Source: an uncultured Planctomycetia bacterium | Lineage (GTDB): Bacteria > Omnitrophota > Gorgyraeia > VGKH01 > JBHPFN01 | DNA: 64,000 nucleotides | Direction of reading: 5' to 3' | Assembly: GCA_964406665.1 (NCBI GenBank) | Contig: CAYOSQ010000005.1 | Location: forward strand, 21,929-85,928 | Shown: piece after piece, positions 2,678 through 42,949 of the stretch | Numbering within the stretch: position 1 is the first letter of the stretch | Layout: every line of letters begins with the position of its first letter | Made by a program: the position numbers and the translations under genes | Notes under the pieces: generated by a model | What the model was told of the DNA's origin: nothing | The model's database searches: none | What the model saw: the letters and a program-made list of their open reading frames with translations, nothing else

Positions 2678-3142
2678 GTGCTTAAATTTATGTTAAGAAA
2701 AGCTAGGCTTGATGATGCAGATGTAATCAAATCTTTAATAGATTTTTATGCTAAAGAAGATCTTATGATTCCTCGTTCTCTTAACGAGATATACGAGAAC
2801 ATCAGGGATTTTTGGGTATACCAGGAAAATGACACTATTGTTGGTTGTTGTGCCCTGCACGTATTTGGCTGGGAAGGTTTAGCAGAAATAAAATCGTTCG
2901 CGGTTGATCAAGCACATCATAAAAAAGGCATCGGCAAAGAGTTAATCTCGTGTTGTTTAAAAGATGCGACAGAGCTAAGAATAAAAAAAATATTTGTTTT
3001 AACATACGTACCAGAGTTTTTTGAAAAGTTTGGTTTTTCCAGGGTGGATAAATCAATGTTCCCGCAGAAGATTTGGGCCGAGTGTTGCAACTGTCCTAAA
3101 TTTCCAGATTGTAAAGAAATTGCACTTATTAAGAAGTTATAA
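2678..3142 (+). CDS. GNAT family N-acetyltransferase (short ArgA-like amino-acid N-acetyltransferase)
   Basis: 154 aa. GNAT acetyl-CoA motif 'HHKKGIGKELI'. Resembles single-domain N-acetylglutamate synthases. A TTGAAA-17-TATAAT-like promoter precedes it at about 2628-2660. Confidence 0.55.
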   Translation: MLKFMLRKARLDDADVIKSLIDFYAKEDLMIPRSLNEIYENIRDFWVYQENDTIVGCCALHVFGWEGLAEIKSFAVDQAHHKKGIGKELISCCLKDATELRIKKIFVLTYVPEFFEKFGFSRVDKSMFPQKIWAECCNCPKFPDCKEIALIKKL

Positions 3143-3153
3143 AGGAGGAAGTA

Positions 3154-4311
3154 ATGGATTATATGTTGACTGAAGAACAGATAATGATTAAAGATTTATG
3201 TAAACAGATCGCCGATGAAAAGATTCGTCCGAAAGCTGCGGAATATGATCAAAGTGAACAGTTTCCCGCAGATATTATGAAGATACTGGCACAGTCAGAT
3301 CTTTTTGGGATTTTTGTCCCAGAAGAATACGGTGGAACCGGCGTAAATGTATTAAGTCTATGTCTGGCTACAGAAGAATTTTCTAAGGCCTGCGGAGGTA
3401 TCGCTGTTTGCTATGCTGCGTCTGCTTTGGGTACTTTTCCTATAATTCTTTTTGGGAATGAGGAGCAGAAGAAAAAATATCTACCACCTCTGGCAAAGGG
3501 AGAAAAGATTGCTGCCTTTGGAATAACAGAGCCTGCTGCAGGTTCTGATGCAAGTGCGATTCAAACCACTGCGAAGAAAGCTGGCGACCACTATATTTTA
3601 AATGGAACAAAACATTTTATTACAAATGGCGGCGATGCCGAGATATATGTTGTCATAGCTATGACAGATAAATCAAAAGGTCCGCGTGGTGCATCTGCAT
3701 TTATCGTTGAGAAAGGTACACCCGGTTTTGAATTCGGTAAAAAAGAAGATAAGATGGGTATACGTGCATCTTCTACTAGTGAGTTAATCTTTACTGATTG
3801 TAAGATCCCTAAGGAAAATCTTCTAGCCCGCGAAGGGATGGGTTTTATCGTAACAATGAAGACTTTTGATATGAGTCGTCCCGGAGTTGCTGCTCAAGCT
3901 TTAGGGATTGCTCAAGGTGCTCTTGATGAGGCGGTAAAATACGCCAAAGAGCGTGAGCAATTTGGTAAGAATATAGGAAACTTTCAGGGGATTCAATGGA
4001 TGCTTGCTGATATGGCAACAGAAGTAGAAGCCGCTAGAGCTCTTGTTTATTCGGTTGCCCGCATGCTTGATAATGGTAATACAAAAGTCGCTAAAGAATC
4101 AGCAATGGCAAAGATGTATGCGTCAGATGTTGCTATGCGCGTCTCTACAGATGCTGTTCAGATTCTTGGTGGTTATGGCTATATGAAAGATTATCCAGTC
4201 GAGAAGTATATGCGTGATGCTAAGATTACCCAGATTTATGAGGGGACTAATCAAATCCAAAGAAACATAATCGCATTAAATCTTTTTAAGGAGCTAGCTT
4301 CGAGAAAGTAA
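3154..4311 (+). CDS. Acyl-CoA dehydrogenase (short-chain/butyryl-CoA dehydrogenase-like)
   Basis: 385 aa with canonical ACAD blocks ('AFGITEPAAGSD', 'YEGTNQIQR', catalytic Glu near the C-terminus). RBS 'aaggaggaag' upstream. Confidence 0.9.
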   Translation: MDYMLTEEQIMIKDLCKQIADEKIRPKAAEYDQSEQFPADIMKILAQSDLFGIFVPEEYGGTGVNVLSLCLATEEFSKACGGIAVCYAASALGTFPIILFGNEEQKKKYLPPLAKGEKIAAFGITEPAAGSDASAIQTTAKKAGDHYILNGTKHFITNGGDAEIYVVIAMTDKSKGPRGASAFIVEKGTPGFEFGKKEDKMGIRASSTSELIFTDCKIPKENLLAREGMGFIVTMKTFDMSRPGVAAQALGIAQGALDEAVKYAKEREQFGKNIGNFQGIQWMLADMATEVEAARALVYSVARMLDNGNTKVAKESAMAKMYASDVAMRVSTDAVQILGGYGYMKDYPVEKYMRDAKITQIYEGTNQIQRNIIALNLFKELASRK

Positions 4312-4337
4312 ATTTATTGTATACCAGGTTATTAAAA

Positions 4338-4370
4338 GGCGTTTTGGCTGAATTACCAGAGCGCCTTTTT
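4338..4370 (+). terminator. Rho-independent terminator downstream of the acyl-CoA dehydrogenase
   Basis: GGCGTTTTGG...CCAGAGCGCC imperfect hairpin followed by TTTTT. Confidence 0.6.
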
Positions 4371-4452
4371 CATCTTGCCAAATTTACAAAAAAGATGTAA
4401 TATATTTATCTATTGAAGGTATCTTTTAGAGGAAATATAAAAAGGAGGAATC

Positions 4453-5007
4453 ATGGTATTTGGAATAGTTTTATTAGTACTTATACTGATTCTTATTGGA
4501 TGGTTTTTTGGAGTTTATAATTCATTAGTCAAGTTAAGGGTTAGGATTAAAAACGCTTGGTCGCAGATAGATGTTCAGCTTAAGCGTCGCCATGATCTTA
4601 TTCCTAATCTTGTAGAGACCGCTAAGGGATATATGGCACATGAGAAAGATACCCTTGAGAAAGTTATTAAGGCGCGTACTCAGGCAATTGATGCATCAAA
4701 TTTAAAGGATAAGGCTCAGGCTGAGAATTTTCTCACCCAGACTTTACGTTCATTGTTTGCTGTATCAGAGAGATATCCAGATCTTAAGGCAAACCAGAAT
4801 ATGTTAAAACTTCAGGAAGAGCTTACTTCAACGGAAAATAAGATTGCTTTTGCCCGGCAATATTATAACGACGAAGTTATGCGTTTTAATACTGCTATTC
4901 AGGTGGTGCCTAATAATATAGTCTCTGGCATGTGTAATTTTACTAAGGAAGAATTCTTCGAAATAGAAGATGCTTCGCAAAAAGAAACTCCTGAGGTAAA
5001 ATTCTAA
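4453..5007 (+). CDS. lemA: LemA family protein
   Basis: N-terminal TM helix followed by the LemA signature ('NSLVKLRVRIKNAWSQIDVQLKRRHDLIPNLVETAKGY'). Confidence 0.85.
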   Translation: MVFGIVLLVLILILIGWFFGVYNSLVKLRVRIKNAWSQIDVQLKRRHDLIPNLVETAKGYMAHEKDTLEKVIKARTQAIDASNLKDKAQAENFLTQTLRSLFAVSERYPDLKANQNMLKLQEELTSTENKIAFARQYYNDEVMRFNTAIQVVPNNIVSGMCNFTKEEFFEIEDASQKETPEVKF

Positions 5008-5033
5008 ATCCTTAAAACTTTTCTTAAAAACAT

Positions 5034-6698
5034 ATGCCTTTTTCCTTTATAGATATAGAAGAGAAAAAGAGCAGGCTGATATTTCTTGTATTTGCCTCTT
5101 TAATAGTTTTCTATTTTGCCACTGCCTGGCTTTTGGTTTTAGTGGTCAAAAATACCACGTTTCTTTATTACAGCAGTTCCAGAATAACGAAGTTTACTTT
5201 CCCTACAGCAAATCAAACATTCATAGCGTTAATAGTTGCATTTGTGGCCGGTTTGACTCACTGGGCATTTTCAACGCATAATCTTATCCAGAAAATCACC
5301 TCTTCGGTCGATGCTTATTTTGCAGATTCTAAGGATACGTATCATCAGTATTTAAAAAACATTGTAGATGAGGTTTCTGTTGCAGTAGGAGGGAGAAATA
5401 TTGATGCCTATGTTATCCCCTCGTCTGCAATGAATGCATTCTCAATCGCCGATTTTGAGGGTAATGCTGTAATCGGAGCAACAGAAGGTTTGCTTGCCCG
5501 TTTAAACAGGGCACAGATTGAAGCTGTAGTTGGGCATGAAGCTGCTCATATCGTAAGCGGTGATTGTCTTAACGCAACTTTAATATGTTCTTTATCTGAG
5601 CTTTACAGAGAATCATTCTCGAAATTATCTCAAGCAATAAGGGGTTCGCGTGGTAGAGGAGGTATACAGATAATGCCTGTTTTGTTAGTTCTTGGCATTA
5701 TGAATATTCTAAATAAATTATTAAATAGTTTCATTTCGCGACAGAGAGAATATCGTGCTGATGCAGTTGCTGTTAGGCTTACGCGAGACCCTCTTAGCCT
5801 TGCCCAAGCTCTTAAGATTATATCAAGTAAATGGAACGGTGCAGGTTTAAGCGGAGAAAACCTGGAGTCAATTTTCATTGTAAGCCCGAAATTAAATGCT
5901 CTTGATGAAAAAGATGGTTTAGGACCAGATCTTTTTTCTACTCATCCACCAGTAAGAAAAAGAATACAGGTACTTTTAGATATTGCTCATGAGGATGAAA
6001 AAACATTAGAAGAAAATATCAAGAATATGAGAAGGGCTTCTCCGGTTGCTAAAGCAGAATTCACAACTGATAAGCCAAAAGATAAAAAGAAATGGTTTGT
6101 TTTTAAAGAGAGTAAGTGGCAAGGTCCTTTTGGAATTCCAGAATTGAGAACACTGCCGGGTTTTTTACCTACTGATTGGATAAAGCTCGAAGGTGTAAAT
6201 GGCGTATCTGATGCATTTCAAGATAAAGATATTGCAGAGATTTTTGAAGAAAATAATAGTGCTGCAAATGTAGAAAAAACAGGATGTGCATGTCCACATT
6301 GTCATGTTGGCTTAGCTGAAATTAATTATGAGGGTGCGCCAGCTTTTAAGTGTCTGCATTGTGAAGGTGTTTTTGTTGAGCACAGTAAGATCCCACGCAT
6401 ATTAATACGTAAGGATAAGGCTTTTTCAAAAGAAGTTGAGGAGTTAGCCAATGCAGTACACAAAACAAAAAAGCCGACGTATAAAGATTTTGATAAACAT
6501 AAGGGAAGCAAAAGCTGGGTTATTGATTGCCCAAAATGCCATAAAAAAATGAAGAGGCAATATTTTGTTTATTCATATCCAGTAGAAATTGATCGCTGCT
6601 GGAGTTGTAGTGGGATTTGGTTTGATAAGCAGGAGCTGGAAGTCTTACAGTATATCTATGAATATAAAGATAAGTTTTTTTCCGGAAAGCAATTTTAA
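5034..6698 (+). CDS. M48-family zinc metallopeptidase (HtpX-like) with two C-terminal zf-TFIIB-type zinc-ribbon domains
   Basis: N-terminal TM helices. HExxH 'HEAAHI' with downstream 'STHPPVRKRI' as the third-ligand region. C-terminus has two CxxC...CxxC ribbons ('CPHCHVGL...CLHCEGVFVE' and 'CPKCHKKM...CWSCSGIWFDKQELE'). Confidence 0.7.
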   Translation: MPFSFIDIEEKKSRLIFLVFASLIVFYFATAWLLVLVVKNTTFLYYSSSRITKFTFPTANQTFIALIVAFVAGLTHWAFSTHNLIQKITSSVDAYFADSKDTYHQYLKNIVDEVSVAVGGRNIDAYVIPSSAMNAFSIADFEGNAVIGATEGLLARLNRAQIEAVVGHEAAHIVSGDCLNATLICSLSELYRESFSKLSQAIRGSRGRGGIQIMPVLLVLGIMNILNKLLNSFISRQREYRADAVAVRLTRDPLSLAQALKIISSKWNGAGLSGENLESIFIVSPKLNALDEKDGLGPDLFSTHPPVRKRIQVLLDIAHEDEKTLEENIKNMRRASPVAKAEFTTDKPKDKKKWFVFKESKWQGPFGIPELRTLPGFLPTDWIKLEGVNGVSDAFQDKDIAEIFEENNSAANVEKTGCACPHCHVGLAEINYEGAPAFKCLHCEGVFVEHSKIPRILIRKDKAFSKEVEELANAVHKTKKPTYKDFDKHKGSKSWVIDCPKCHKKMKRQYFVYSYPVEIDRCWSCSGIWFDKQELEVLQYIYEYKDKFFSGKQF

Positions 6699-9416: not shown

Positions 9417-9474
9417 CTGTTTCTTTTTGGGAGCAGAGTTTTTATTTTGGCGAGAATTAAAAAAGGGGGAAGCA

Positions 9475-10776
9475 ATGTTTAGAAGAAAAAGAAGCAATAA
9501 TTCAGGTATATCTTTGGTAGAAATTTTGGTTACTGTTTTTATTGTTGTATTGCTATTATCTACAGCGGTAACAACACTTGTCAGAGGAGCTAGGTTAAGA
9601 GAGGTAGCTGATCAAAAGACAAGGGCAATATTAGATGGGCAAAGTGTTTTTGAAGCGATGCGCGAAATTGCTCAAAATGCTGGAATAAATGATTTGTACA
9701 GGTGCGGCGCATCTTTTCGTGCAAATGCATATGTTGATTTGAATCAAGTTTTAGGCGGTGCGTCACTTTTAGATGAGCAAATACGTATTTTTTATCCCAG
9801 TGGTGTTACGGCACGTCCATTGCATTGTAGGTTGCAGATTAGCTGGACAGATTTTCGCGGTCAAACCGTTGCAGAAACAATAGAAACGAAATTTTGGGAA
9901 TTGGTTGCAGTAACTCCTGATAATGGAAGCTGTGGCACCTGCTTCCTCGCCGGCACCCCTATCCTTATGGCTGATGGCTCAACTAAGGATATTGAAACAA
10001 TTAAGGTAGGAGATACTGTAATAGCCTTTGATCAAGAATCTGGTAAGAATAAATCTGATGAGGTAGTTGAGACATTCATTCATGAAGAAGATAGCTATCT
10101 TTTAATCAATAATCGCATTAAGGCAACATCCAACCACCCTGTATTTCATAAAGGAAGATGGGTAGATATCGGATTGCTTAACATAGGTGATGAATTAACT
10201 AAGGTAGATGGTTCTAAAGAAAAGATCACCAGCATAGAAAAGATCAAAGAACCTGTAATGGTATACAACCTTGAGGTTAACCCTTATCATACATATTATG
10301 CTGATAACATATTAGCTCATAATAAGGGCTGTCTATTACCAGGCACAACTATACTTATGGCTGATGGCACTAACAAGTTTATTGAAAATATAGTTACCGG
10401 GGATAAAGTAACCTCTTATGATGAAGAATCTAAGACCAAGTTAAAAGATACAGTTAAAGAAGTATTCATGCATGAGGTACAAGGATACCTGATAATCAAT
10501 GATAGCATTAAAGTAACAGCAGAACACCCCTTCTTCTCTAATGGTATATGGGTTAGAGCAAAAGATCTTAAAGAAGGAGATATATTACTTACTCAAGAAG
10601 GTAAAGAAGAAGCTATTACCAGCATAAAAGCTGTTGATAAGAAGATCGTCGTTTACAACATTGAAGTAAACCCATATCACAACTACTTTGCTAATGGATA
10701 TCTGGTGCATAATAAAAGTTTGCCACAGGTACCTGTTCCACCACCAGATCCACCAGGTGGAGGATATGGGAATTAG
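9475..10776 (+). CDS. Type IV pilin-like (pseudopilin) protein with two tandem C-terminal Hint / bacterial intein-like (BIL) domains
   Basis: RBS 'aaagggggaag'. Class III signal 'MFRRKRSNNSG|ISLVEILV' (Gly-1, Glu+5). A pilin globular region with a Cys pair follows. Then two ~135-aa repeats, each starting with Cys ('CFLAGTPILMADGS', 'CLLPGTTILMADGT'), containing TxxH ('TSNH', 'TAEH') and ending 'VNPYHxY...HN'. Pro-rich tail. Confidence 0.7.
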   Translation: MFRRKRSNNSGISLVEILVTVFIVVLLLSTAVTTLVRGARLREVADQKTRAILDGQSVFEAMREIAQNAGINDLYRCGASFRANAYVDLNQVLGGASLLDEQIRIFYPSGVTARPLHCRLQISWTDFRGQTVAETIETKFWELVAVTPDNGSCGTCFLAGTPILMADGSTKDIETIKVGDTVIAFDQESGKNKSDEVVETFIHEEDSYLLINNRIKATSNHPVFHKGRWVDIGLLNIGDELTKVDGSKEKITSIEKIKEPVMVYNLEVNPYHTYYADNILAHNKGCLLPGTTILMADGTNKFIENIVTGDKVTSYDEESKTKLKDTVKEVFMHEVQGYLIINDSIKVTAEHPFFSNGIWVRAKDLKEGDILLTQEGKEEAITSIKAVDKKIVVYNIEVNPYHNYFANGYLVHNKSLPQVPVPPPDPPGGGYGN

Positions 10777-10816
10777 AGCTTGAAAACTTTGAAGTATATA
10801 TTTTTGAAGTTATAGT

Positions 10817-11356
10817 TTGGAGATGGTTATGAGATTTATGTATACAACAAAAAAAGGATTTACTTTCATGGAAACTTTAGTTGCTACCTTGGTTACCACT
10901 GTTATGTCTGCAGTCGTGATAACCACGATAGTTTGTTTAATGAATTTCTTTTTTGGGGAAGTTGCCAATGCTGAACTAAAACGGAAGGCTCACCAGTCAT
11001 TATCAACAATTATCCAGGATTTAAGAACTGCTGAGCCTGATGGAGCTAATGGTATTGATGTTTTAAATGATGGTGATAACAATAAGATTACTGCACGACT
11101 TGCAGGTGGTTGGGATGCTAATGGTTTTCTTGTGTATTCTACTGATGATACTCATTATTGGTTAGATGGAGATGAACTGGTTAAAGACAATATTGATACT
11201 GGAGAACGTAGAGTTCTCTGTAATCTTGCTTCAAGATTTAACTGTACAGAATATGCTGAAGGTCATTATTCTATGACCTTAATTTTAACTAAGGATACTG
11301 TGTTGAAAACAATTACTTATACTGCTACTGAAAACTTTGGTGTAAGAAATGATTAG
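10817..11356 (+). CDS. Prepilin-type N-terminal cleavage/methylation domain protein (minor pilin-like)
   Basis: 'KKG|FTFMETLVATLV' class III signal with Glu+5 followed by a hydrophobic helix. Start could be at one of the in-frame Met codons 10817-10838. Confidence 0.6.
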   Translation: MEMVMRFMYTTKKGFTFMETLVATLVTTVMSAVVITTIVCLMNFFFGEVANAELKRKAHQSLSTIIQDLRTAEPDGANGIDVLNDGDNNKITARLAGGWDANGFLVYSTDDTHYWLDGDELVKDNIDTGERRVLCNLASRFNCTEYAEGHYSMTLILTKDTVLKTITYTATENFGVRND

Positions 11357-11371
11357 TTTATAATGCAAAAT

Positions 11372-11567
11372 TTGAAAGGGTAGTTAAAATGCTAGCTATG
11401 AGATTACGCAAAAATGGACTTGCTATGATATTGAGTTTGGTGCTGACACTTGTTGTGTCTTGGGTAACAGTACCTATAATCATGACAGCTTTAGGGCATA
11501 CTCAAAATTCCAAAATAACAACCACTGCAATTGAAGCTAGAGAGGTAGCTGAAGCCGGAATAGCTGA
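11372..11567 (+). repeat. 196-bp direct repeat (RBS + 5' coding end), copy 1; partner at 13254..13449
   Basis: Identical to 13254..13449 except for 1 mismatch (11546 t vs c). The bodies downstream are only about 50% identical at protein level. Confidence 0.9.
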
Positions 11568-13207
11568 GGATTAAGGACGGCTTTACTAATAATTCTCTTC
11601 CTGCCAACTTTCCTAAAAACCCTAGTGAAACCGGCTCTAGTTTTTCTTATAATATCTGGCCAGGTGGAGAAGCCTTTCCAGTAGGAAGTGGTTCTGAATA
11701 TTCAGTAAATGTAGAATTAACCTTGGCTACTAATGACTTCGTTGAAGGAATAGGTGGAAACGGAGTGTATCGCTATATTTTAACCTCTAGCGGTACTGTC
11801 CCAACTATGGGTGGAGAGGTTAAGAAAACTGTTCAGGCAGGAGTAACATTTGATTATTTCTTTGGTGAGAATGTTAGGATGTGCGAAACTGACGAAGGTC
11901 CAGATTGCACAAGAGATCTAGGACATTCTTATTTCAATAATCAAAAGTCAATTATTCATTTAGATACAACTAACATAGCTGAGGGACGCTATCTTCGTCC
12001 AGGCAGATATAACCTATCATATTTCGGAAGGTATGGAGAAGGTCAGGGACCGGGTGCTGAGGAGGACCATGCTCGTCAAAGTGCTGAGGACCTTGTGCTT
12101 CTTTTTGATGAATATAGATTAGAGTTTCCAGAATGGCGGGATGCTAACGGTGATCACCTCGGACGCGATCCAGGAGGTGGAGTGCAGTATGAAGAATTTT
12201 TAGTTGACTACAATTTACAGGATCATAACGAACAATTTTTTCAGTATATAGATGAAAATGGTACAAATAACGAAGACAGCCCACCCTTCAATTTTGAGGT
12301 TTTAAGCCGTGATCCAGAAAACGAAGATGATGTGTTTATCGCAGAATTGAACTGCAGATTTAATTCTTCGCAATCAGCCGGCTGTGAAGACGATCTTGAT
12401 TTAGAACCTGGTGCACCCTGTACCCAATTTTGTGATGCTACTGAAGCAGCATTTGGAAGTGGTTCTTGGCCAGATTATCAGGAAGCATGTATGAACGCTT
12501 GCTATAGAAACAGTAGTGAGGTTTCATTTTCTTTTCAAGATGTTCATCCTGATTCAGAGGCGCATGTTCGTTGCTCGACTCCTGATGTATGCTTGAGACA
12601 TTGCTCTCATAACTATCAGTGGAATTATTATGATTCAACATGTCGTCAGCAGTGCGATACTACACATGGTTTTCTCCCTAGCAGAAAACAGCCCCAGGTG
12701 TGGATGCAATGTATGGTAGACTGCACTAATATTGAAGAATCTTTTGTTGCAAGTGAGTGTAATCAGCTATGTGATAATCCAGATTTATGTTTTGATTACT
12801 TTGCAGGAGATTATCAGCGTTATGCTAGAACCGATGATCCCCAGCAAGGTTTTCCTGGAGCACCAATACAGTTAAATTCTGAATGCTTTCAATTGTGTTC
12901 AGGAGTAACTAATATTTGGGGTTGTCGTGAGAGATGTGACAAAAAATTCTTTAGACGAGACACAACAGGAGATATTGTTATTTCTGCAATGAATAGAGTT
13001 GTTAAGGATAAATATGGCAAGTTTTATTGGCATGATGAAGACGATGATAATTCTTGTCATTATCCGCCTTGCGAACCTGCAACTGGTGGAAGTGTACATT
13101 TTGGTGATGGTACTTCACTTGAAATAGGTTTTGTTCTGAATATAGAGCAAGATCAAAGAATTGTAATAGTAGATTTTCAGTGGTTAGAAGTTGGTGGGGA
13201 TTATTAG
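11389..13207 (+). pseudogene. PilX_N-type large cysteine-rich pseudopilin-like protein, frameshifted paralog of 13271..15112
   Basis: N-terminal 62 codons are nearly identical to the downstream gene. An 11-nt deletion relative to copy 2 at about 11567 produces a stop ('GIAED*'). Homology continues in another frame (ORF 11723..13207, TTG as first codon), including all CX3C motifs. Confidence 0.55.
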
Positions 13208-13253
13208 TTTTTTGATTAAATGGATTCTGGTAATTAAATATAACAGCACTGAA

Positions 13254-13449
13254 TTGAAAGGGTAGTTAAAATGCTAGCTATGAGATTACGCAAAAATGGA
13301 CTTGCTATGATATTGAGTTTGGTGCTGACACTTGTTGTGTCTTGGGTAACAGTACCTATAATCATGACAGCTTTAGGGCATACTCAAAATTCCAAAATAA
13401 CAACCACTGCAATTGAAGCTAGAGAGGCAGCTGAAGCCGGAATAGCTGA
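13254..13449 (+). repeat. 196-bp direct repeat, copy 2
   Basis: See 11372..11567. Confidence 0.9.
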
Positions 13450-15112
13450 AGCCTTGATGTGGATTAAGAATGGTTTTACTTATAATACTCTTCCTGCCAA
13501 CTTTCCCAAAAACCCATCCGAAGTCGGCCCTGGCTTTGCTTACGATATCTGGCCAGGTGGAGAAGCCTTTCCTGCAGGAGGAGATAATAAGTATGCTGTA
13601 AATGTAGAATTAACCTTGGCTACTAATAATTTCATTGAAGGAGTAGATGGAAATGGAGAGTATCGCTATATTCTAACCTCTAGCGGTACTGTTCCGACTC
13701 TAGGTGGAGAAATAGAAAAAACTGTTCAGGCAGCAGTAACTTTTGATTATTATTATGGTGATGATATCGATATTTGTACAGTAGGTTCAGGACAAGACTG
13801 CACTAGAGATTTAGGTTATGAATATGTAAATGATAGAAAGCCGATAATTCATCTTGATACAACTAATGAAGCAGAAGGTCGTTATGTGCGTCCTGGTTTT
13901 TATAGCATAAGCTATAACGGTGAGTATGATATTGATCAAGGAGCCGGAGCAGAAACAACTGGACCTGATAGAGAATATGCTATGTATGGTTCAGAAAATA
14001 TGGTTGTATATCTTGATGAAGCAGCTCTTCTTTTTCCTGAGTGGAGAGATTTAGATGGAAATGGACGTGCTTCTTATGGTGGAGAGATTAGTCCTGAAGA
14101 ATTTCTTGTAAAGCCATGGTTGCAAGATTATACGGTTCATTTGTTTGAAAACATTGATGCAAATGGTACAAATGACGACCCTCCATTTAATTTTGAGGTT
14201 ATTGAAAGGGATCCTGAGAATCCTGAAGATAGGTTTATAATTGAATTATTTTGCGAGTCTGATAGCCTCCCAATAGGAAGTTGTTCCGGAGACCTTGATC
14301 TTGAGTCAGGTTCTACATGTTCCAATTTCTGTGAAGCAGTAGAGGATGCATATACAACCTTGGCATGGCCAGACTATGAAGCAGCATGTATGGCTGCCTG
14401 TGGAAGAAATGTTCTTGTAGAATATTCTTTTCAAGATGAACATCCAGATTCAGAGGCTAATGTTCGCTGTGGTGACAGTCAAATATGTTTGATTTATTGC
14501 GCCCACAGCTATCAATGGAATTATTACGATTCTTATTGTCGTCAAATATGTGATGTACATTATAATTTTGATCCTAATGCTCCTAATTATGGTCTTAGGC
14601 AGTCTCGAGATTGGAATGAGTGCATGGTTGATTGCTCAGATTTTATTTATGTAACTCCGGGATTCGAGTGTCAAAATTGGTGCGATGATCATGAGTCTTG
14701 TATGGATTTCTTTAGTGAAGAATATCAGATGAATGCGACAGAAGACAATCCAGCTCAATTTATTCCTGCAGTTGATCCAAGACAATTCATGTCGCAATGC
14801 GATAGAATGTGTAAAAGTGTAGATAATATTGGAGAATGCCGCAGCAGCTGCGATAGAAGATTTTTCCGTCAAGATGTTACAGGCGATATTGTTATAACTT
14901 TAATGAATAAATTGGCTAAAGAGAAACGTAAGAGGTTTCATTGGAATTCAGCAGACGATAATAGCTATGATTGTGAGTGGCCATGTGAACCAATAACTGC
15001 AGGTAGCGTTCATTTCGGAGATGCTGAGGGTACGGCTTTTGAGCTTCAGATAAATGATGATCTTAGAATAATTTTGAAGGATTTTCAGTGGATAGAAATA
15101 CCAAATGAATAA
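13271..15112 (+). CDS. PilX_N-domain pseudopilin-like protein with large cysteine-rich C-terminal region (putative pilus-tip/adhesin component)
   Basis: 'RLRKNG|LAMILSLVLTLVV' prepilin-like signal lacking Glu+5 (as in GspK/PilX), then 'AIEAREAAEAGIAEA' typical of PilX_N. Nine CX3C motifs (CSNFC, CMAAC, CLIYC, CRQIC, CMVDC, CQNWC, CDRMC, CRSSC, CEWPC). RBS 'gaaagggtag'. Confidence 0.65.
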   Translation: MLAMRLRKNGLAMILSLVLTLVVSWVTVPIIMTALGHTQNSKITTTAIEAREAAEAGIAEALMWIKNGFTYNTLPANFPKNPSEVGPGFAYDIWPGGEAFPAGGDNKYAVNVELTLATNNFIEGVDGNGEYRYILTSSGTVPTLGGEIEKTVQAAVTFDYYYGDDIDICTVGSGQDCTRDLGYEYVNDRKPIIHLDTTNEAEGRYVRPGFYSISYNGEYDIDQGAGAETTGPDREYAMYGSENMVVYLDEAALLFPEWRDLDGNGRASYGGEISPEEFLVKPWLQDYTVHLFENIDANGTNDDPPFNFEVIERDPENPEDRFIIELFCESDSLPIGSCSGDLDLESGSTCSNFCEAVEDAYTTLAWPDYEAACMAACGRNVLVEYSFQDEHPDSEANVRCGDSQICLIYCAHSYQWNYYDSYCRQICDVHYNFDPNAPNYGLRQSRDWNECMVDCSDFIYVTPGFECQNWCDDHESCMDFFSEEYQMNATEDNPAQFIPAVDPRQFMSQCDRMCKSVDNIGECRSSCDRRFFRQDVTGDIVITLMNKLAKEKRKRFHWNSADDNSYDCEWPCEPITAGSVHFGDAEGTAFELQINDDLRIILKDFQWIEIPNE

Positions 15113-15139: not shown

Positions 15140-15173
15140 AGCGTTTTGACATGTTGTCAAAACGCTTTTTTTT
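15140..15173 (+). terminator. Strong rho-independent terminator ending the pilin-like operon
   Basis: Perfect hairpin AGCGTTTTGACA-tg-TGTCAAAACGCT followed by TTTTTTT. Confidence 0.8.
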
Positions 15174-15174
15174 G

Positions 15175-15202
15175 TTGACTAAACAAATAGTTTTGATAGA
15201 AT
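15175..15202 (+). promoter_or_regulatory. Sigma70-type promoter for etfBA
   Basis: TTGACT - 16 nt - TAGAAT immediately upstream of etfB. Confidence 0.45.
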
Positions 15203-15211
15203 AGCTCCATT

Positions 15212-15991
15212 ATGGATATTATAGTATGCATAAAACAGGTACCTGATACCACTGATGTTCGCATAGATCCGATGACTAACACCTTGATTCGAGAAGGTGT
15301 ACAGTCAATAATAAATCCTTTTGATATGTATGCAATTGAGGAAGGTATTCAGCTTAAAGAGCGTTTTGGTGGAAACGTTATTGTGGTTACCATGGGTCCT
15401 CCTCAGGCAGAAGCTGCCTTAAGAGAAGCAATTAGCTTAGGGGCGGATGAGGGAATTTTAGTTAGTGACCGCGCTTTTGCCGGAAGCGACACTTGGGCAA
15501 CTAGCTATACTTTAGCAGCTGCAATTAAGAAGATTGGAGGCTTTGATTTGATTATTTGCGGAAAACAAGCCTCAGACGGAGATACTGCACAGGTTGGGCC
15601 GGGAATTGCAGCTCATTTAGACTTACCACAGGTTACCTATGTAAAGAAAGTTGAAAATATCGATGAGAAACATGCTAAGGTCGAGCGCATGACAGAAGAG
15701 GGATATGAGGTTGTCGAGACACCGCTGCCATGTTTGTTAACTGTTGTAAAAGAGATTAACGAGCCAAGGCTTCCTTCTTTGAAGGGGATGATGCGTTCTA
15801 AAAAAGCTGAAATAAAGAAATTAATAAAAGACGACTTGGATGTTGATGAAGAAGGCTTAGGATTAAATGGTTCCCCTACTCAAGTAGTTAAGATTTTTAC
15901 TCCACCTCCCAGGGAGGGCGGACAGATGTTAGAAGGGGAAGTTTCTGAAGTTGCCAAAAAATTAGTCGAAGCTTTGAAAAACGATATATAA
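15212..15991 (+). CDS. etfB: Electron transfer flavoprotein beta subunit
   Basis: 'MDIIVCIKQVPDT' N-terminus. Full-length EtfB/FixA similarity. Confidence 0.9.
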   Translation: MDIIVCIKQVPDTTDVRIDPMTNTLIREGVQSIINPFDMYAIEEGIQLKERFGGNVIVVTMGPPQAEAALREAISLGADEGILVSDRAFAGSDTWATSYTLAAAIKKIGGFDLIICGKQASDGDTAQVGPGIAAHLDLPQVTYVKKVENIDEKHAKVERMTEEGYEVVETPLPCLLTVVKEINEPRLPSLKGMMRSKKAEIKKLIKDDLDVDEEGLGLNGSPTQVVKIFTPPPREGGQMLEGEVSEVAKKLVEALKNDI

Positions 15992-15993
15992 AA

Positions 15994-17193
15994 ATGTCTA
16001 TTGGAATAATTCTAGAAAAATGTACTGGCTGTACCCTATGCGTTAAAGCTTGTCCTTTTGATGCTATTAAGATTGAAAACAAAAAAGCGATTATCGATTT
16101 AGATAAATGTACGCTTTGCGGAGCTTGTGTTGAAGTTTGTAAATTTGATGCAATTTTTCTAGAGAAAGAAACAAAACCAAAAGAAGATATTGTTGATGAT
16201 TCTAAAGGAGTTTGGGTTTTTGCCGAGCAGAAAAAAGGTGTTGTTCAGTCAGTTGCTTTTGAACTTTTAGGAAAAGCCCGGGAACTTGCCGATAAGCTTA
16301 ATACAGAAGTAGCTGCGGTTTTATTAGGGGATGGCGTTGCAAAACAGGCAGATGAGTTAATTCATCGTGGAGCAGATAAAGTTTATTTAGTGGAAGCCAA
16401 AGAGCTTAAAAATTTCCAGGATGAGCCTTACACAGAGGTACTTGTTAAGTTGATCCAGAAATACAAACCCAACATTTTATTAAGTGGAGCTACTTCAATT
16501 GGCAGGTCTCTCATAGCTCGTGTGGCAATAAATATTAAAGCCGGCTTGACCGCAGATTGTACTGGATTAGATATTGATCCTGAAAAAAACATTTTACTTC
16601 AAACCCGTCCAGCCTTTGGTGGAAATATTATGGCTACAATCATAAGCCCAAATTACCGTCCGCAAATGGCAACAGTAAGACATAAAGTAATGAAGGAGGC
16701 CCAGCCAGATAAATCTCGCAAGGGAGAAGTGATAAAAGAAAGTTTTGATAAGAAAGTTTTAGTTTCTCGTACCAAGGTTTTAGATATTGTTGATGATATA
16801 ACATCTGCTGTCAATTTAACAGAAGCAGATATTATTGTTTCTGGAGGAAGAGGAATAAGGGAAGCTAAGAACTTTGCGCTTATTGAAGAGTTAGCAAAAG
16901 TTCTTGGAGCTGCAGTGGGTGCATCTCGCGCTACTGTTGATGCCGGTTGGATTCCTTATTCTCATCAGGTTGGTCAGACTGGAAGAACAGTTTGTCCAAA
17001 AATTTATATTGCCTGTGGAATTTCCGGACAGATTCAACATTTAGTTGGAATGCAGTCATCAAAGATTATTGTTGCAATCAATAGTGACCCCAGTGCTCCT
17101 ATTTTTAAAGTTGCCACTTACGGTATAGTAGGAGATGTTTTTGAAGTTGTCCCTGCCTTAACTAAGAAGTTCAAAGAAGTCCTCAAGAAGTAA
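15994..17193 (+). CDS. etfA: Electron transfer flavoprotein alpha subunit with N-terminal 2x[4Fe-4S] ferredoxin domain (FixB-like)
   Basis: Two CxxCxxCxxxCP motifs ('CTGCTLCVKACP', 'CTLCGACVEVCK') followed by an EtfA core with FAD-binding C-terminal domain ('IVSGGRGI', 'YIACGISGQIQH'). Confidence 0.9.
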   Translation: MSIGIILEKCTGCTLCVKACPFDAIKIENKKAIIDLDKCTLCGACVEVCKFDAIFLEKETKPKEDIVDDSKGVWVFAEQKKGVVQSVAFELLGKARELADKLNTEVAAVLLGDGVAKQADELIHRGADKVYLVEAKELKNFQDEPYTEVLVKLIQKYKPNILLSGATSIGRSLIARVAINIKAGLTADCTGLDIDPEKNILLQTRPAFGGNIMATIISPNYRPQMATVRHKVMKEAQPDKSRKGEVIKESFDKKVLVSRTKVLDIVDDITSAVNLTEADIIVSGGRGIREAKNFALIEELAKVLGAAVGASRATVDAGWIPYSHQVGQTGRTVCPKIYIACGISGQIQHLVGMQSSKIIVAINSDPSAPIFKVATYGIVGDVFEVVPALTKKFKEVLKK

Positions 17194-21130: not shown

Positions 21131-22324
21131 TTAAATTGCTGAGCGGACTAAATTCTTACCGTCTTTCTTGGCTTTGAATAATGCTTCATCTGCAGCATTT
21201 ACAAGATTAGATTTGTTCTTGGCATCTTCCGGGTAGGTAGCTACTCCTAAGCTTATAGTAATTTTAGGCTCAGATTTAGTTTCACCAAAAGAAAAATTGT
21301 GGTTTTCGGTTATTTCACGCAATCGGTTAGCTATAAATAAAGCTTCCTTGCGAGGTGTTTGTGGTAATATTATTGCAAATTCCTCTCCACCATAACGACA
21401 AACATAATCCATTTTTCTGGAGTGTTCCTTAAAGATGGTGGAAAGCTCTTTTAGAATTTTATCTCCTACTTGGTGTCCTAGGGTATCGTTGTAAGATTTG
21501 AAGTTATCAATATCTATCATAATTAGACTAAGAGGTAGCTTCAAAGCTTTTGTTCTGCTTAACTCTTCTTGAAGATTAAGCTGGAAATAACCATGGTTCC
21601 ATAGTTCAGTAAGCGAGTCTGTATTGGTGCGCATGACAGCATGTTCGTAAAGCTGAGAATTTTCAATTGCTAAGCCTGCTTGGTTTGCAAGCATAGTGAA
21701 TATTCTTAGATTATCTTTGGTAATAGGTTTTTGTGTAAATATATTATCTGCAACTATAATGCCAACAACTTTATCTTTTGCCCTAAGAGGTATCAGGACG
21801 ACTTCAGTAGTATTAAATTTATCCAAAAGTGGATCTTTTCTATATTTGCCTATTGATTTTTTTGTGATATGCAATGGCATCATATCAAAATAACATAAAG
21901 AAAGCAGATTGTTTTGCTTGGGATCGAGCGGAAGCTTAAATTGTCTAACGAAGCGGTTGAATTCGGAATCAATCATCTTCCCGGACGCCTTATACGCTTC
22001 GATAAGATTGTTTAGATCCGTTTGTTCTTTTTCGATCTTATCCCATATTTTTTTTGCTTTTTCTCCGGTGACTGGGCCAATACCCATTTTCCCTTCAATA
22101 ATTTTATCGTTTTCATTTACCAGAAAAAGCATGGCTCGGTTAAACCTTAATCCTGAATGCGCTGTAACTCCGGTTAAAATAATATATAGGATTTCATCTA
22201 AGCGCAGAGTGGTGCGCATAGCATTGCTTACTTCATACAAAATAGAAAGCTCTGCCTGTGTTCGATTGAGTTCTTGCTGCAATTTTGATATTTGTTCAGG
22301 CTTTTTATCCATCATAGTATTCAA
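21131..22324 (-). CDS. GAF-domain diguanylate cyclase (GGDEF)
   Basis: C-terminal GGDEF domain with intact 'RYGGEEF' active site and 'DxLT' motifs. N-terminal coiled-coil/GAF-like region. Confidence 0.85.
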   Translation of the reverse strand: MNTMMDKKPEQISKLQQELNRTQAELSILYEVSNAMRTTLRLDEILYIILTGVTAHSGLRFNRAMLFLVNENDKIIEGKMGIGPVTGEKAKKIWDKIEKEQTDLNNLIEAYKASGKMIDSEFNRFVRQFKLPLDPKQNNLLSLCYFDMMPLHITKKSIGKYRKDPLLDKFNTTEVVLIPLRAKDKVVGIIVADNIFTQKPITKDNLRIFTMLANQAGLAIENSQLYEHAVMRTNTDSLTELWNHGYFQLNLQEELSRTKALKLPLSLIMIDIDNFKSYNDTLGHQVGDKILKELSTIFKEHSRKMDYVCRYGGEEFAIILPQTPRKEALFIANRLREITENHNFSFGETKSEPKITISLGVATYPEDAKNKSNLVNAADEALFKAKKDGKNLVRSAI

Positions 22325-27545: not shown

Positions 27546-27956
27546 ATGTTAGTTTTTAGCATTCCTAGTGATAGAAAGTCTATTAAAAAGGCAACAAGTA
27601 AAATCTTAACATATATAGAAGATATGAATCTTCGGGAGAAACTTCTTTTTAATGTTAGATTGTGCTGTGAAGAAGCTATAATTAATGCTATTAAACACGG
27701 CAATGCCTATGATTCTGATCTCATGGTCAAAGTATCGGTTTCCAAGACTCCTGAGTATCTTAAGATAAGCGTTAAAGATCAAGGTAAAGGTTTTGATGTT
27801 AGTAAGGTTTCTAACCCTACTGCAAAAGAAAACTTACTTAAATTATCCGGCAGAGGAGTACATCTTATGAGAAATTATATGGATGAAGTTTCTTTCAGTG
27901 AAAAGGGAAACCGTGTTACAATGATGAAGTATATTAAAAAAGCTAATAGGAGGTAA
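27546..27956 (+). CDS. Anti-sigma factor / serine protein kinase (RsbW/SpoIIAB-like, HATPase_c)
   Basis: 'EEAIINAIKHG' N-box and 'VKDQGKGF' G1-box. 136 aa. Confidence 0.7.
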   Translation: MLVFSIPSDRKSIKKATSKILTYIEDMNLREKLLFNVRLCCEEAIINAIKHGNAYDSDLMVKVSVSKTPEYLKISVKDQGKGFDVSKVSNPTAKENLLKLSGRGVHLMRNYMDEVSFSEKGNRVTMMKYIKKANRR

Positions 27957-31402: not shown

Positions 31403-32425
31403 ATGAATAAAAAAACTTTAGTATTTTCAATATTTATTTTATTGTTTTGTTCAAATGTCTATTCCCAAACCATTACGGAGGATAAGCAGGAAAAGCATGA
31501 AGATAGAGAATCTTTTAGCCAAAGTTATTCTACTGAGCAAGATACAAGTGATGAATCGAGATATCAGATTGAGTCTAATTTTGGATTTTTTATAGGATTT
31601 GATAACAACGTATTCTTAGATTCAACTCGCAAGGGCGATACTTTTCAGAATTATATTTATAGTTTAAATTATTCAAATAAACTAAAAAGAGATTTAGATT
31701 TAAAGATTAAGTACAGCCTTAACTCGCTTCAGTATGATAGATACACTGATAATTCTTCTGTGGGTAATACAGGAAATTTTGCTTTAGAGAAAAAATTGGG
31801 TGGGCGTAATCTTGTGGGAATTTCTACTGAAATAGGTTCTGTTTATTATCCAAGCAATGATCAGGGTGAATATTTTACAGCTGGAGGTTCTTTGTATGGT
31901 AAACAGTTTTTAGGAAAGAACCTGTATCATCGAGCTGGTTATAGTTTTTTAAGTAAAAGTTTTATGCATCGTAAGGCGAAAGACGGCAACGGCGTTGATA
32001 TGGAAGAAGAGAGAGATGATGTGCGCCATGCTATAGATTACGAAGTAGGGTTTTATCCGGATAATCAATCATTATTTAAGTTAAAAGGTCAGGTATATAA
32101 TAATGATTCTCGAGATGGATATATGGATTATTATGATTATGATTCTTTTAAGCTTGGCGCAACATTTATAAAACTACTAAACGATAAATGGTCATCGCTT
32201 CTTAACTATAATTTTCGTAGAAATAATTATAAAACTCGCCTAATTAAAAATGGATCAGAGGCAGAGTATGATAATAATCATACTGGAAACGCAGGAATTA
32301 TTTATAAATTAAGTGAAAACACTTCAGCATCAGCAATATATTCTTATTCGCAGAATTATTCTAATGATAGCGGTCAGGAATATTCCGTTAGCATGGTATC
32401 TTTAGGCCTGCGATATGCCTTCTAA
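31403..32425 (+). CDS. Putative outer-membrane beta-barrel protein
   Basis: Signal peptide, alternating Tyr/Gly/Asn-rich amphipathic strands, C-terminal 'LGLRYAF' (terminal Phe). Confidence 0.4.
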   Translation: MNKKTLVFSIFILLFCSNVYSQTITEDKQEKHEDRESFSQSYSTEQDTSDESRYQIESNFGFFIGFDNNVFLDSTRKGDTFQNYIYSLNYSNKLKRDLDLKIKYSLNSLQYDRYTDNSSVGNTGNFALEKKLGGRNLVGISTEIGSVYYPSNDQGEYFTAGGSLYGKQFLGKNLYHRAGYSFLSKSFMHRKAKDGNGVDMEEERDDVRHAIDYEVGFYPDNQSLFKLKGQVYNNDSRDGYMDYYDYDSFKLGATFIKLLNDKWSSLLNYNFRRNNYKTRLIKNGSEAEYDNNHTGNAGIIYKLSENTSASAIYSYSQNYSNDSGQEYSVSMVSLGLRYAF

Positions 32426-41941: not shown

Positions 41942-42949
41942 ATGCCACAAGAAAAGAAAAGTGACGGTTCTCATCGTCAAAAAGCATTAGAATTAGCCAT
42001 TGCTCAAATAGAGAAACAGTTTGGAAAAGGTTCTATCATGAAGCTCGGTTCTGATACCAAGCTTGATGTTGAGTCTATACCGACGGGTGCGATATCTTTG
42101 GATATTGCTTTAGGTGTAGGAGGTTTGCCTAGAGGTAGGGTTGCAGAAATTTTTGGCCCGGAAGCTTCGGGTAAAACTACTCTCACTTTAAGCGTTATTT
42201 CAGAAGTCCAGCGAAACGGAGGAGTTGCAGCATTTGTTGATGCAGAGCATGCTTTTGATCCCACATATGCAAAAAAAGTCGGAGTAGACTTAGATAATCT
42301 TTTAATGTCTCAACCTGATACCGGTGAGCAAGCATTAGAGATTACTGAAACATTAGTGCGCTCCAACGCCGTTGATTTAGTTGTTATAGATTCTGTTGCT
42401 GCACTTACTCCTCGTTCAGAGATTGAAGGAGAAATGGGTCAGATGCAAATTGGTTTACAGGCACGTCTTATGTCTCAGGCATTAAGAAAGCTTACAGGTG
42501 CTATTAGTAAATCTAAGACCTGTGTTGTATTTATTAATCAGATTAGAATGAAAATAGGTGTTATGTTTGGTTCTCCTGAAACTACTCCTGGAGGTAGGGC
42601 TTTGAAGTTTTATGCTTCAGTAAGGTTGGATTTGCGACGTATCGGTTCTGTTAAAGAGGGCGATCAGGTTGTCGGTAGTAGAGTAAGAGCAAAGGTTGTT
42701 AAAAATAAGGTTGCTCCACCTTTTAAAAATACTGAGTTTGAAATTATGCATGATGAAGGAATATCTAGAGTGGGAAATATTCTGGATATGGCAATTGAGT
42801 CAGGCATCATTGATAAATCTGGAGCATGGTTTGCTCTTGACGGGGAAAAAATAGGTCAAGGTAGAGAAAATGCCCGCCGTTTTTTAAAAGACCATTCTAA
42901 GATTTTAGATAAGGTAGAAAAGCAAGTTAGGCAGAAGGCAATTGCGTAA
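41942..42949 (+). CDS. recA: Recombinase RecA
   Basis: Walker A 'GPEASGKTT' and the rest of the canonical RecA sequence. Confidence 0.95.

Follow-up and report, generated by a model that had tools for sequence, protein, structure and literature searches.

What process renders the 5' ends of two adjacent genes almost identical when their remaining parts have diverged, and why is one of the two broken immediately behind the identical part? The question is raised by a pair of tandem paralogs, copy 1 and copy 2, in a 64,000-nucleotide stretch of contig CAYOSQ010000005.1 (assembly GCA_964406665.1, positions 21,929 to 85,928), the whole of which is referred to here as the window. A first-pass annotation, made from the letters of the window, had interpreted the arrangement as a gene-conversion signature of the kind found in recombination-based systems of surface protein variation and had suggested that the broken copy was a silent donor, a recently inactivated gene or an assembly artifact. 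The explanation that we consider probable combines conversion of the 5' ends between old tandem paralogs, putative pilins of the pilus tip, with a recent inactivation of copy 1.

A nearly identical 5' block in two diverged paralogs

The homogenized block spans positions 11372-11567 in copy 1 and 13254-13449 in copy 2 (both on the plus strand). As originally noticed, nucleotide alignment of these 196-nt direct repeats contains a single mismatch (T at 11546 versus C at 13428, resulting in Val53 and Ala53, respectively), and the sequence occurs twice within the whole window. Both blocks begin 17 nt upstream of their own ATG (11389 in copy 1 and 13271 in copy 2) and so include the ribosome-binding site (RBS) and, behind it, the sequence for the hydrophobic anchor and for the larger part of helix alpha1. 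The 3' end of the block falls two nucleotides after codon 59, that is, the block comprises 59 2/3 codons rather than the 62 codons initially counted. The longest perfect run shared by the two copies is 174 nt; in 2000 rounds of column shuffling of their alignment, the longest run was 16 nt on average and 39 nt at most, and the expected number of runs of 174 nt or longer at the local identity of 83% is about 1.6e-11.

Nei-Gojobori counts of synonymous changes reveal three tiers of divergence. Within the block, none of the 44 synonymous sites is changed over 59 codons. In the next approximately 100 codons (11570-11869), the proportion of synonymous differences (pS) is 0.29-0.31, corresponding to a synonymous divergence (dS) of about 0.4; this zone of intermediate identity (11568-11869, plus strand), which encompasses the remainder of the pilin-like module, is 83% identical over about 300 nt, and identical runs of 30, 28 and 19 nt are confined to it, with the 28-30-nt runs located at 11652 and 11705. 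Beyond 11869, no identical run is longer than 14 nt, pS rises to 0.48-0.87, and synonymous sites are saturated. The original description of everything behind the block as diverged thus holds past approximately 11869, but not for the 300 nt in between.

Identity of the 5' tract, synonymous sites included, exceeds that of the flanking homologous sequence, and the three-tier divergence is, on the evidence of the alignment, gene conversion rather than conservation, in agreement with the first reading of the mosaic. The existence of three tiers further implies that the 5' part was homogenized at least twice: the pattern shows an older homogenization that spanned the whole pilin-like module, to about 11869, and a very recent one that covered the RBS and helix alpha1 (196-204 nt). 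The substitution counts also show the paralogs to be old, given the saturated synonymous sites and the ratio of nonsynonymous to synonymous divergence (dN/dS) of approximately 0.3 (about 0.29 over the whole body), which indicates that purifying selection acted on both genes through the greater part of their past.

Truncation of copy 1 by a genuine deletion

Between positions 11567 and 11568, copy 1 (plus strand) lacks 11 nt, AGCCTTGATGT, that are present only in copy 2, at 13450-13460 (plus strand, from the alignment). There is neither microhomology nor a repeat at this site, and the alignment places the deletion in copy 1 unambiguously. The 8 nt 3' of the deletion, GGATTAAG, are likewise identical in both copies, mismatches starting at 11576; therefore, the deletion is located either at the 3' end of the homogenized tract or 8 nt inside it. 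As first described, the deletion breaks the frame: the truncated frame of copy 1 (11389-11574, plus strand) ends after 61 aa with a TAA at 11572-11574. The body of copy 1 (11564-13207, plus strand) is open in the +1 frame over about 1.64 kb and is devoid of an anchor and a start of its own.

The case for the deletion as a property of the genome comes from six independent metagenome contigs of the window population (L001-L006), obtained by exact-protein look-ups. These contigs represent at least six samples from two archives: L002-L004 come from three European Nucleotide Archive (ENA) samples, and L001, L005 and L006 come from Joint Genome Institute (JGI) samples (the sources of L002-L006 are ENA ERZ23499057, ERZ23498658 and ERZ23498668, and JGI 3300013119 and 3300009008). 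All six are 99.94-100% identical to the window, with 0-2 substitutions each plus one 1-nt gap. The deletion junction, GGAATAGCTGAGGATTAAGGACGG, is present in all five contigs that span 11567 (L002-L006, from at least five samples), and in one of them, L002, the truncated frame of copy 1 is annotated as a 58-aa gene. The T of the window at position 14026 is an A in L001-L004 (a GCT/GCA difference that is synonymous), with further single-nucleotide polymorphisms at 14068 and 12491; therefore, these contigs are not copies of one assembly, and at least two haplotypes share the frameshift. The deletion is genuine and not an assembly error.

Mis-assembly at the repeat, producing either the frameshift or the 5' near-identity, is accordingly very improbable, even though the repeat, at 196 nt, exceeds the typical read length, L001 and L003-L006 end inside or beside it (L005 and L006 are loop contigs with the repeat at both ends), and repeat collapse is able to hide differences between copies. 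The deletion junction adjoins unique copy 1 sequence, hence is covered by k-mers, and is identical in five assemblies produced by two pipelines; the T/C difference at 11546/13428 recurs in independent assemblies; a repeat node in the graph requires truly near-identical copies, unlike the adjoining 83% zone; and U-R-B1-I-R-B2 is the sole linear path through the graph. The artifact originally envisaged is excluded, at least in its simple form.

The junction of the deleted copy 1 reads GCTGAGGATTAAGGACGG; a repaired copy 1 would read GCCTTGATGTGGATTAAGGACGG and a copy 2 carrying the deletion GCTGAGGATTAAGAATGG. Neither of the latter two, nor any mosaic changes, were found in the six contigs (contig-level data), so that the comparison with related contigs proposed at the outset yielded no alternative junctions. 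A profile search and a separate search with an exact 32-nt pattern for all junction variants both returned nothing from a metagenome-contig collection in which the window population is not represented. Look-ups with the upstream gene and the 58-aa open reading frame, aimed at contigs that join the upstream gene straight to copy 2, returned only L002.

Could the two parts of copy 1 nevertheless be expressed, through programmed +1 ribosomal frameshifting that would yield the full-length protein or through reinitiation that would yield a separate body? The frame of the body is open from 11564, which leaves 8 nt up to the stop of frame 0, and the parts would be joined if the ribosome shifted within GCT GAG GAT TAA. 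However, the overlap at 11564-11574 (CTG AGG ATT / GCT GAG GAT TAA) permits no +1 re-pairing of tRNA and contains no slippery heptamer, and no stimulatory structure was detected (fold z = -1.0). As for reinitiation, the first canonical start in the body frame is the TTG at 11723, and the product would be devoid of the membrane anchor needed for export. Furthermore, the lesion is found neither in copy 2 nor in any of the ten relatives described below. Recoding of this kind appears extremely improbable.

The body of copy 1 is well preserved: all 16 cysteines that are invariant in the family are retained, and there are no stops. Stop-creating substitutions constitute 5.1% of those possible in this body; therefore, an open frame is likely as long as fewer than about 58 neutral substitutions (3.5% divergence) have accumulated, and not beyond that. 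Tajima relative-rate tests detected no significant acceleration of copy 1 (45 versus 35 unique changes, p=0.26). The open body, the retained cysteines and the unaccelerated rate fit a very recent inactivation and would also fit a maintained silent allele. Of the two fates initially offered for the broken copy, recent inactivation thus agrees with the state of the body, which fits it equally well, and the silent donor is unsupported.

A maintained silent allele is the core of another scenario, in which conversion drives an ON/OFF toggle between two tip adhesins: short tracts starting in the shared 5' block would erase the 11-nt lesion from copy 1 or transfer it to copy 2, and cells would thereby change the C-terminal module that they display. 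Such a toggle would account for the fully open body of copy 1 with every invariant cysteine in place, and the 28-30-nt identical runs at 11652 and 11705 could end a conversion tract that repairs copy 1, transfer in the reverse direction breaking copy 2. Nevertheless, we consider the toggle unlikely: recent neutral inactivation also predicts an open body, the lesion is a unique 11-nt deletion rather than a reversible repeat (there are no simple sequence repeats at the frameshift or elsewhere in the locus besides the T-run of the terminator), an intact copy 1 protein was not found among 5.8 billion clusters, and neither the repaired junction nor the deleted copy 2 is seen in the six contigs.

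Recurrence in a second lineage and divergence in a control genome

A comparable architecture is present in a second lineage, the proteins of which are 28% identical. In the 50-kb contig L017, a 205-nt block is identical, without exception, in two tandem genes of 626 aa and 567 aa; it extends from codon 3 to '...QEIK', a codon homologous to the '...WIK' at which identity ends in the window, and is followed by abrupt divergence. The nucleotide sequences of the blocks in the two lineages are unrelated. A truncated third copy, P0015, located at a distant locus (L013-L016), is 97% identical in the block; downstream of it, P0015 resembles the 626-aa gene and not the 567-aa gene. Thus, the block groups the copies as (626,567),417, and the next 77 nt group them as (626,417),567, the copies residing on contigs from different samples. 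This apparent change of topology along the gene indicates recombination. A fourth, divergently oriented paralog, P0010 (592 aa), lacks the block of the tandem pair. Homogenization of the alpha1 segment appears to have arisen independently in two of the three lineages that could be examined on a single contig.

The truncated copies P0015 and P0013 (L010 1301-2467) are 388-417 aa long and have no Cys-rich C-terminal part; gene order at the P0015 locus is murB-ddl-ftsQ-ftsA ... radical SAM - 177 aa - P0015 - 142 aa - UDG. In L017 (5697-13598), L009 and L018, the three-gene module to which the paralogs belong occurs twice, in divergent orientation, beside a Tad-type cluster.

Two contigs of this lineage were considered as direct products of recombination and set aside. 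L009 equals L017 minus 1852 nt (the body of the 626-aa gene, the spacer and one block), the exact product of a crossover within the block; however, an assembler that skips the loop at an exact 205-nt repeat would give the same contig. L009 is therefore not counted; L005 and L006 are the corresponding loop contigs in the window lineage. L010 joins the tandem locus to the copy at the UDG locus about 370 nt into the gene; here, chimeric assembly is as likely as a real recombinant between loci, and this contig is not counted as evidence either. At such loci, short-read assemblers break contigs or skip the loop, which makes gene counts for this family that are based on metagenome-assembled genomes (MAGs) unreliable.

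The recurrence of the block architecture in a second lineage, with different junctions (L009 versus L017, and L010), would be in line with a toggle, although loop skipping at the exact 205-nt repeat is sufficient to explain these variants. A bolder version, which likewise seems unlikely to us, casts the alpha1 block as a portable recombination handle of host-dependent Omnitrophota nanobacteria that allows the lesion to be moved or erased and crossovers to delete or amplify gene bodies. If this version were true, the lineage could change the Cys-rich, receptor-binding module that caps the pilus, a conversion-based switch of host range or adhesion that requires neither repeats nor a dedicated recombinase.

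The control genome L011 (GCA_042567325.1) encodes three tandem paralogs of the family on one contig, with 40-60% nucleotide identity throughout and longest identical runs of 9-11 nt. Uniform divergence along the gene, which had been named beforehand as the observation that would speak against conversion, is thus the pattern of this genome and not that of the window pair. Therefore, selection on the N-terminus alone does not yield nucleotide identity. Selection at the nucleotide level, via a shared leader, a translation-initiation signal or an RNA element, that would keep the 5' ends identical without recombination can point to the RBS inside the block and to the end of the block at the same codon in two lineages. 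Nevertheless, identity of 44 out of 44 synonymous sites over 59 codons, the lack of significant RNA structure at the 3' end of the block (z = -1.0), the fully diverged 5' ends of the three tandem paralogs in L011 and the unrelated nucleotide sequences of the blocks in the two lineages make this explanation most unlikely. L011 also carries a second module at 2751-5363 ([148 aa N_methyl][183 aa][509 aa]), in which the 509-aa protein has a similar N-terminus (a hydrophobic segment followed by 'AEAG') and elsewhere no detectable homology to the Cys-rich family.

A family of putative modular minor pilins

The paralogs are the last two genes of a four-gene operon on the plus strand. The first gene (9427-10776) encodes a GspI-like pseudopilin with a prepilin site G|ISLVE and two C-terminal Hint (bacterial intein-like) domains, as identified with Pfam and NCBIfam: there is a PT-HINT match in two stretches (Pfam, E=2.5e-42), a weak N_methyl match and, for residues 27-78, a weak match to NCBIfam XpsI (GspI) with E=5.8e-4. 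Residues 17-169 of this protein are homologous to the 146-168-aa products of the first genes of the module in L009 and L011. The second gene (10817-11356) encodes a pseudopilin in the GspJ position, with the site G|FTFME and a weak N_methyl match, which is 34% identical to the product of a 175-aa gene in L011 (E=8e-33) and 28% identical to that of a 212-aa gene in L009. Copy 2 (13271-15112) encodes an intact 613-aa protein that resembles modular minor pilins, with a GspK-like N-terminal part and a Cys-rich C-terminal module. The operon is closed by an intrinsic terminator at 15140-15176 (a 12-bp stem followed by a T run). No terminator was found between copy 1 and copy 2, the strong one following only after copy 2, so that copy 1 would be co-transcribed with the rest of the operon (9427-15112); a single transcript for both copies would also suit a toggle.

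Both Hint domains of the first gene product start with Cys (CFLAGTPILMADG and CLLPGTTILMADG) and end with HN followed by Lys; therefore, the +1 nucleophile is absent. The L009 and L011 homologs of this protein have no Hint domains, and a 46-nt direct repeat (9952-9997 and 10342-10387) is the trace of the two domains in the DNA. Self-cleavage would be an uncommon property for a minor pilin.

The label PilX_N under which the paralogs were first described is not borne out: neither copy produced a match in Pfam (cut-off E<=1) or NCBIfam, only one of the 11 family members, and neither window copy, matches PilX_N (PF14341), with E=0.018, and the 'AEAG' motif behind the hydrophobic segment is a resemblance to PilX_N only. 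Word-based protein searches with copy 2 and with the family profile retrieved only the two clusters of the window itself; in a search of genome contigs, the two-copy profile found nothing, and a five-sequence alignment found only a single amplified genome (SAG). When 1.84 billion representative proteins were searched exhaustively with HMMER, ten distant relatives, 27-43% identical to copy 2, came to light besides the two window proteins. Searches for structural counterparts, with Foldseek against the PDB and with a sequence profile against PDB sequences, produced no significant match and no match, respectively. Common to all the relatives are an N-terminus that is basic and hydrophobic and lacks Glu+5, a motif of the 'AEAG' type and, in the C-terminal region, an HPDSE motif alongside 16 invariant cysteines.

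The gene order and the modeled structure point to a role in a pilus. The paralogs read G|LAMIL, that is, without Glu+5, and follow the I-like (G|ISLVE) and J-like (G|FTFME) genes; this succession of a small pseudopilin, a medium pseudopilin and a large protein lacking Glu5 mirrors gspI-gspJ-gspK and is kept, with detectable homology, in L009, L011 and L017. In the structure model, a long helix (residues 7-71) is packed on an antiparallel sheet (98-160), as in the pilin fold, with predicted local distance difference test (pLDDT) values of 80-90 in these parts. The zone with dS of about 0.4 ends around residues 160-165, where the modeled beta-sheet and, with it, the pilin-like module end. We infer that the paralogs represent two alternative modular minor pilins located at the tip, with the Cys-rich module facing outward; the best reading of 9427-15112 is an operon, in an uncultured bacterium of the Omnitrophota type, for a pilus-tip module of which the C-terminal Cys-rich part evolves fast. 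In L017, the module is located directly upstream of RcpC/CpaB, the secretin and a fused TadZ/CpaF-like ATPase, and a rotamase is also encoded in the Tad-type cluster. For Omnitrophota, attachment to hosts by means of pili has been proposed (PMC10066038), a role that would favor a toggle as well.

The closest relative of the window locus, in the Candidatus Omnitrophota SAG AM-311-J20, is a syntenic tandem pair with the same genes behind it as in the window (etfB, etfA and SMC); the annotation of two further relatives is also Omnitrophota. A duplication that predates the split from the SAG lineage was considered and rejected: a C-terminal tree joins copy 1 with copy 2 in 200 of 200 bootstraps. 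Given this grouping, orthology to P0006 and P0003 is not established, and the C-terminal tree provides no incongruence test. Apart from the locus, the window is core chromosome, encoding SMC, DnaG, RpoD, RecA, AlaRS and SecDF; the presence of recA (41942-42949, Pfam E=1.9e-137) means that machinery for homologous recombination is available.

Several neighboring genes deserve mention in their own right. The EtfA homolog (15994-17193, plus strand) contains an N-terminal 2x[4Fe-4S] ferredoxin domain, a fusion shared with the SAG relative (L007), and is preceded by etfB (15212-15991); together with an acyl-CoA dehydrogenase (3154-4311), these genes are consistent with an electron-bifurcating system of the Bcd/Etf type. 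The 184-aa product of 4453-5007 (plus strand) matches the NCBIfam magnetosome family MamQ with E=6.5e-26, far below the family cut-off, and is probably a generic LemA-family protein rather than evidence of magnetosomes. Near the locus, a signaling cluster includes a GAF-GGDEF diguanylate cyclase, an anti-sigma-factor-like HATPase and a CHASE2-SpoIIE phosphatase (21131-22324 on the minus strand, 27546-27956 and 32415-34352) and could be relevant to regulation of the surface or the pilus.

Proposed course of events

Under the explanation favored here, ordinary RecA-dependent ectopic gene conversion between the direct-repeat copies would homogenize their 5' ends. Conversion would be self-limited to alpha1, the assembly interface and the part that selection keeps similar, because only there would the two copies retain stretches of identity of sufficient length for strand exchange. 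Both tip variants would thereby keep a common alpha1 assembly helix, with divergence left to the outer modules. Copy 1 would be a paralog inactivated only recently and still co-transcribed, as opposed to a maintained silent cassette, and the exported protein would be made only from copy 2.

Several points weigh against this explanation or blunt it. The deletion coincides with the end of the tract, for which the chance is about 1% if the two are unrelated, and this hints at a causal link. Two relationships may be envisaged: either the 11-nt heterology halted heteroduplex extension, in which case the deletion would predate the most recent conversion, or the alpha1 boundary may be the natural end of the tract, as in the second lineage, the deletion having occurred later, 8 nt inside the tract. 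The window lineage has only two copies, fewer than an incongruence test requires. De Bruijn assemblers can merge differences deep in repeats, so that one mismatch in 196 nt may slightly overstate the identity. The supporting contigs all derive from short reads and from one near-clonal population (>=99.94%), in which minority haplotypes with an intact copy 1 are possible. Finally, the assignment to Omnitrophota comes from the nearest relative and not from markers of the window itself.

The process is an ordinary and well-known one, there is no sign of a programmed variation system, and the mechanism adds nothing new. Even so, as homogenization in each of two independent lineages is confined to the assembly helix, the locus would be a clean natural example of conversion that is limited by homology maintained by selection. 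We see moderate to low interest in the mechanism and somewhat more in the protein family and in the part that it may play when Omnitrophota attach to hosts. The family consists of previously undescribed putative modular minor pilins, without a Pfam or PDB match and with no more than a dozen or so representatives in a set of 1.84 billion proteins; to date it is seen only in Omnitrophota-type genomes and always in multiple copies.

Comparison with known systems

In cassette-based antigenic variation of the pilE/pilS, vlsE or tprK type, silent donors have no start, conserved sequences flank the variable part on both sides, and the expressed locus is heterogeneous. The window contains two copies, both with an RBS and ATG and both in one operon; past 11869, identical runs are at most 14 nt long, so that there is no 3' anchor for an exchange of bodies; and, at the level of contigs, heterogeneity among six contigs from at least six samples was limited to 0-2 substitutions each and one 1-nt gap, with no mosaic changes. 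No G-quadruplex (G4)-like motif was found on either strand between 9000 and 15400, no homopolymer or tandem repeat of the kind that underlies phase variation is located at the frameshift, and 11564-11574 contains no slippery site with a stimulator, as would be required for programmed ribosomal frameshifting. Together with the lack of alternative junctions, these results do not support the surface-variation system proposed in the first-pass annotation.

Pilin variation in Neisseria (pilE/pilS) involves RecA-dependent, non-reciprocal transfer between pilin gene copies and leaves a constant N-terminal helix and a variable outer part. The pilS copies are numerous and lack a promoter, RBS and the 5' constant region, a G4 starts conversion, and it is the variable part that is converted. 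In the window, by contrast, the constant part is converted, both copies possess an RBS and a start, and the G4 is absent.

The closest behavioral analogue is the bab gene family of Helicobacter pylori. The babA, babB and babC genes have near-identical 5' regions and diverged middles, with conversion tracts located approximately 60-240 bp from the start codon (PMC4552749). Conversion at the 5' end moves the frame-determining region between these paralogs, one copy is often out of frame, and the bab genes thus behave as a toggle would require (PMC4552749). As in the window pair, the 5' parts of these paralogs are near-identical and frame status is set in the 5' region. The bab loci, however, are dispersed, share a 3' region that is more than 90% identical and switch frame reversibly via a CT repeat, whereas the window copies are arranged in tandem, have no 3' homology and differ by a lesion that is a unique 11-nt deletion.

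The PilC1-PilC2 pairs (PilY1 family) of Neisseria and Kingella are paired genes for pilus-associated adhesins, one of which is often silenced by a frameshift close to its start; the two are thought to confer different adhesive properties, the frameshift is a reversible one in a poly-G tract, and the loci are not in tandem. The PilC proteins are not pilin-like and are unrelated to the window paralogs in sequence and fold. These pairs therefore are functional analogues of the window pair, built on an unrelated protein and a poly-G switch.

With respect to the proteins themselves, the closest counterparts are GspK/XcpX and other modular minor pilins, such as Thermus thermophilus ComZ and those of Streptococcus sanguinis. 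The window family has no sequence similarity to the solved structures or to Pfam families and differs in having at its C-terminus an extra module that is rich in Cys, 16 of them invariant; unlike GspK/XcpX, its genes reside, in at least one lineage, in a Tad-type cluster rather than in a type II secretion system or type IVa pilus locus.

The conversion process itself is of the type known from the concerted evolution of tufA and tufB, where RecA-mediated conversion keeps parts of the genes identical and the tract ends where homology falls, usually with homogenization of the whole gene. In the window, homogenization appears to be limited to the assembly helix, leaving the remainder of the two genes free to diverge.

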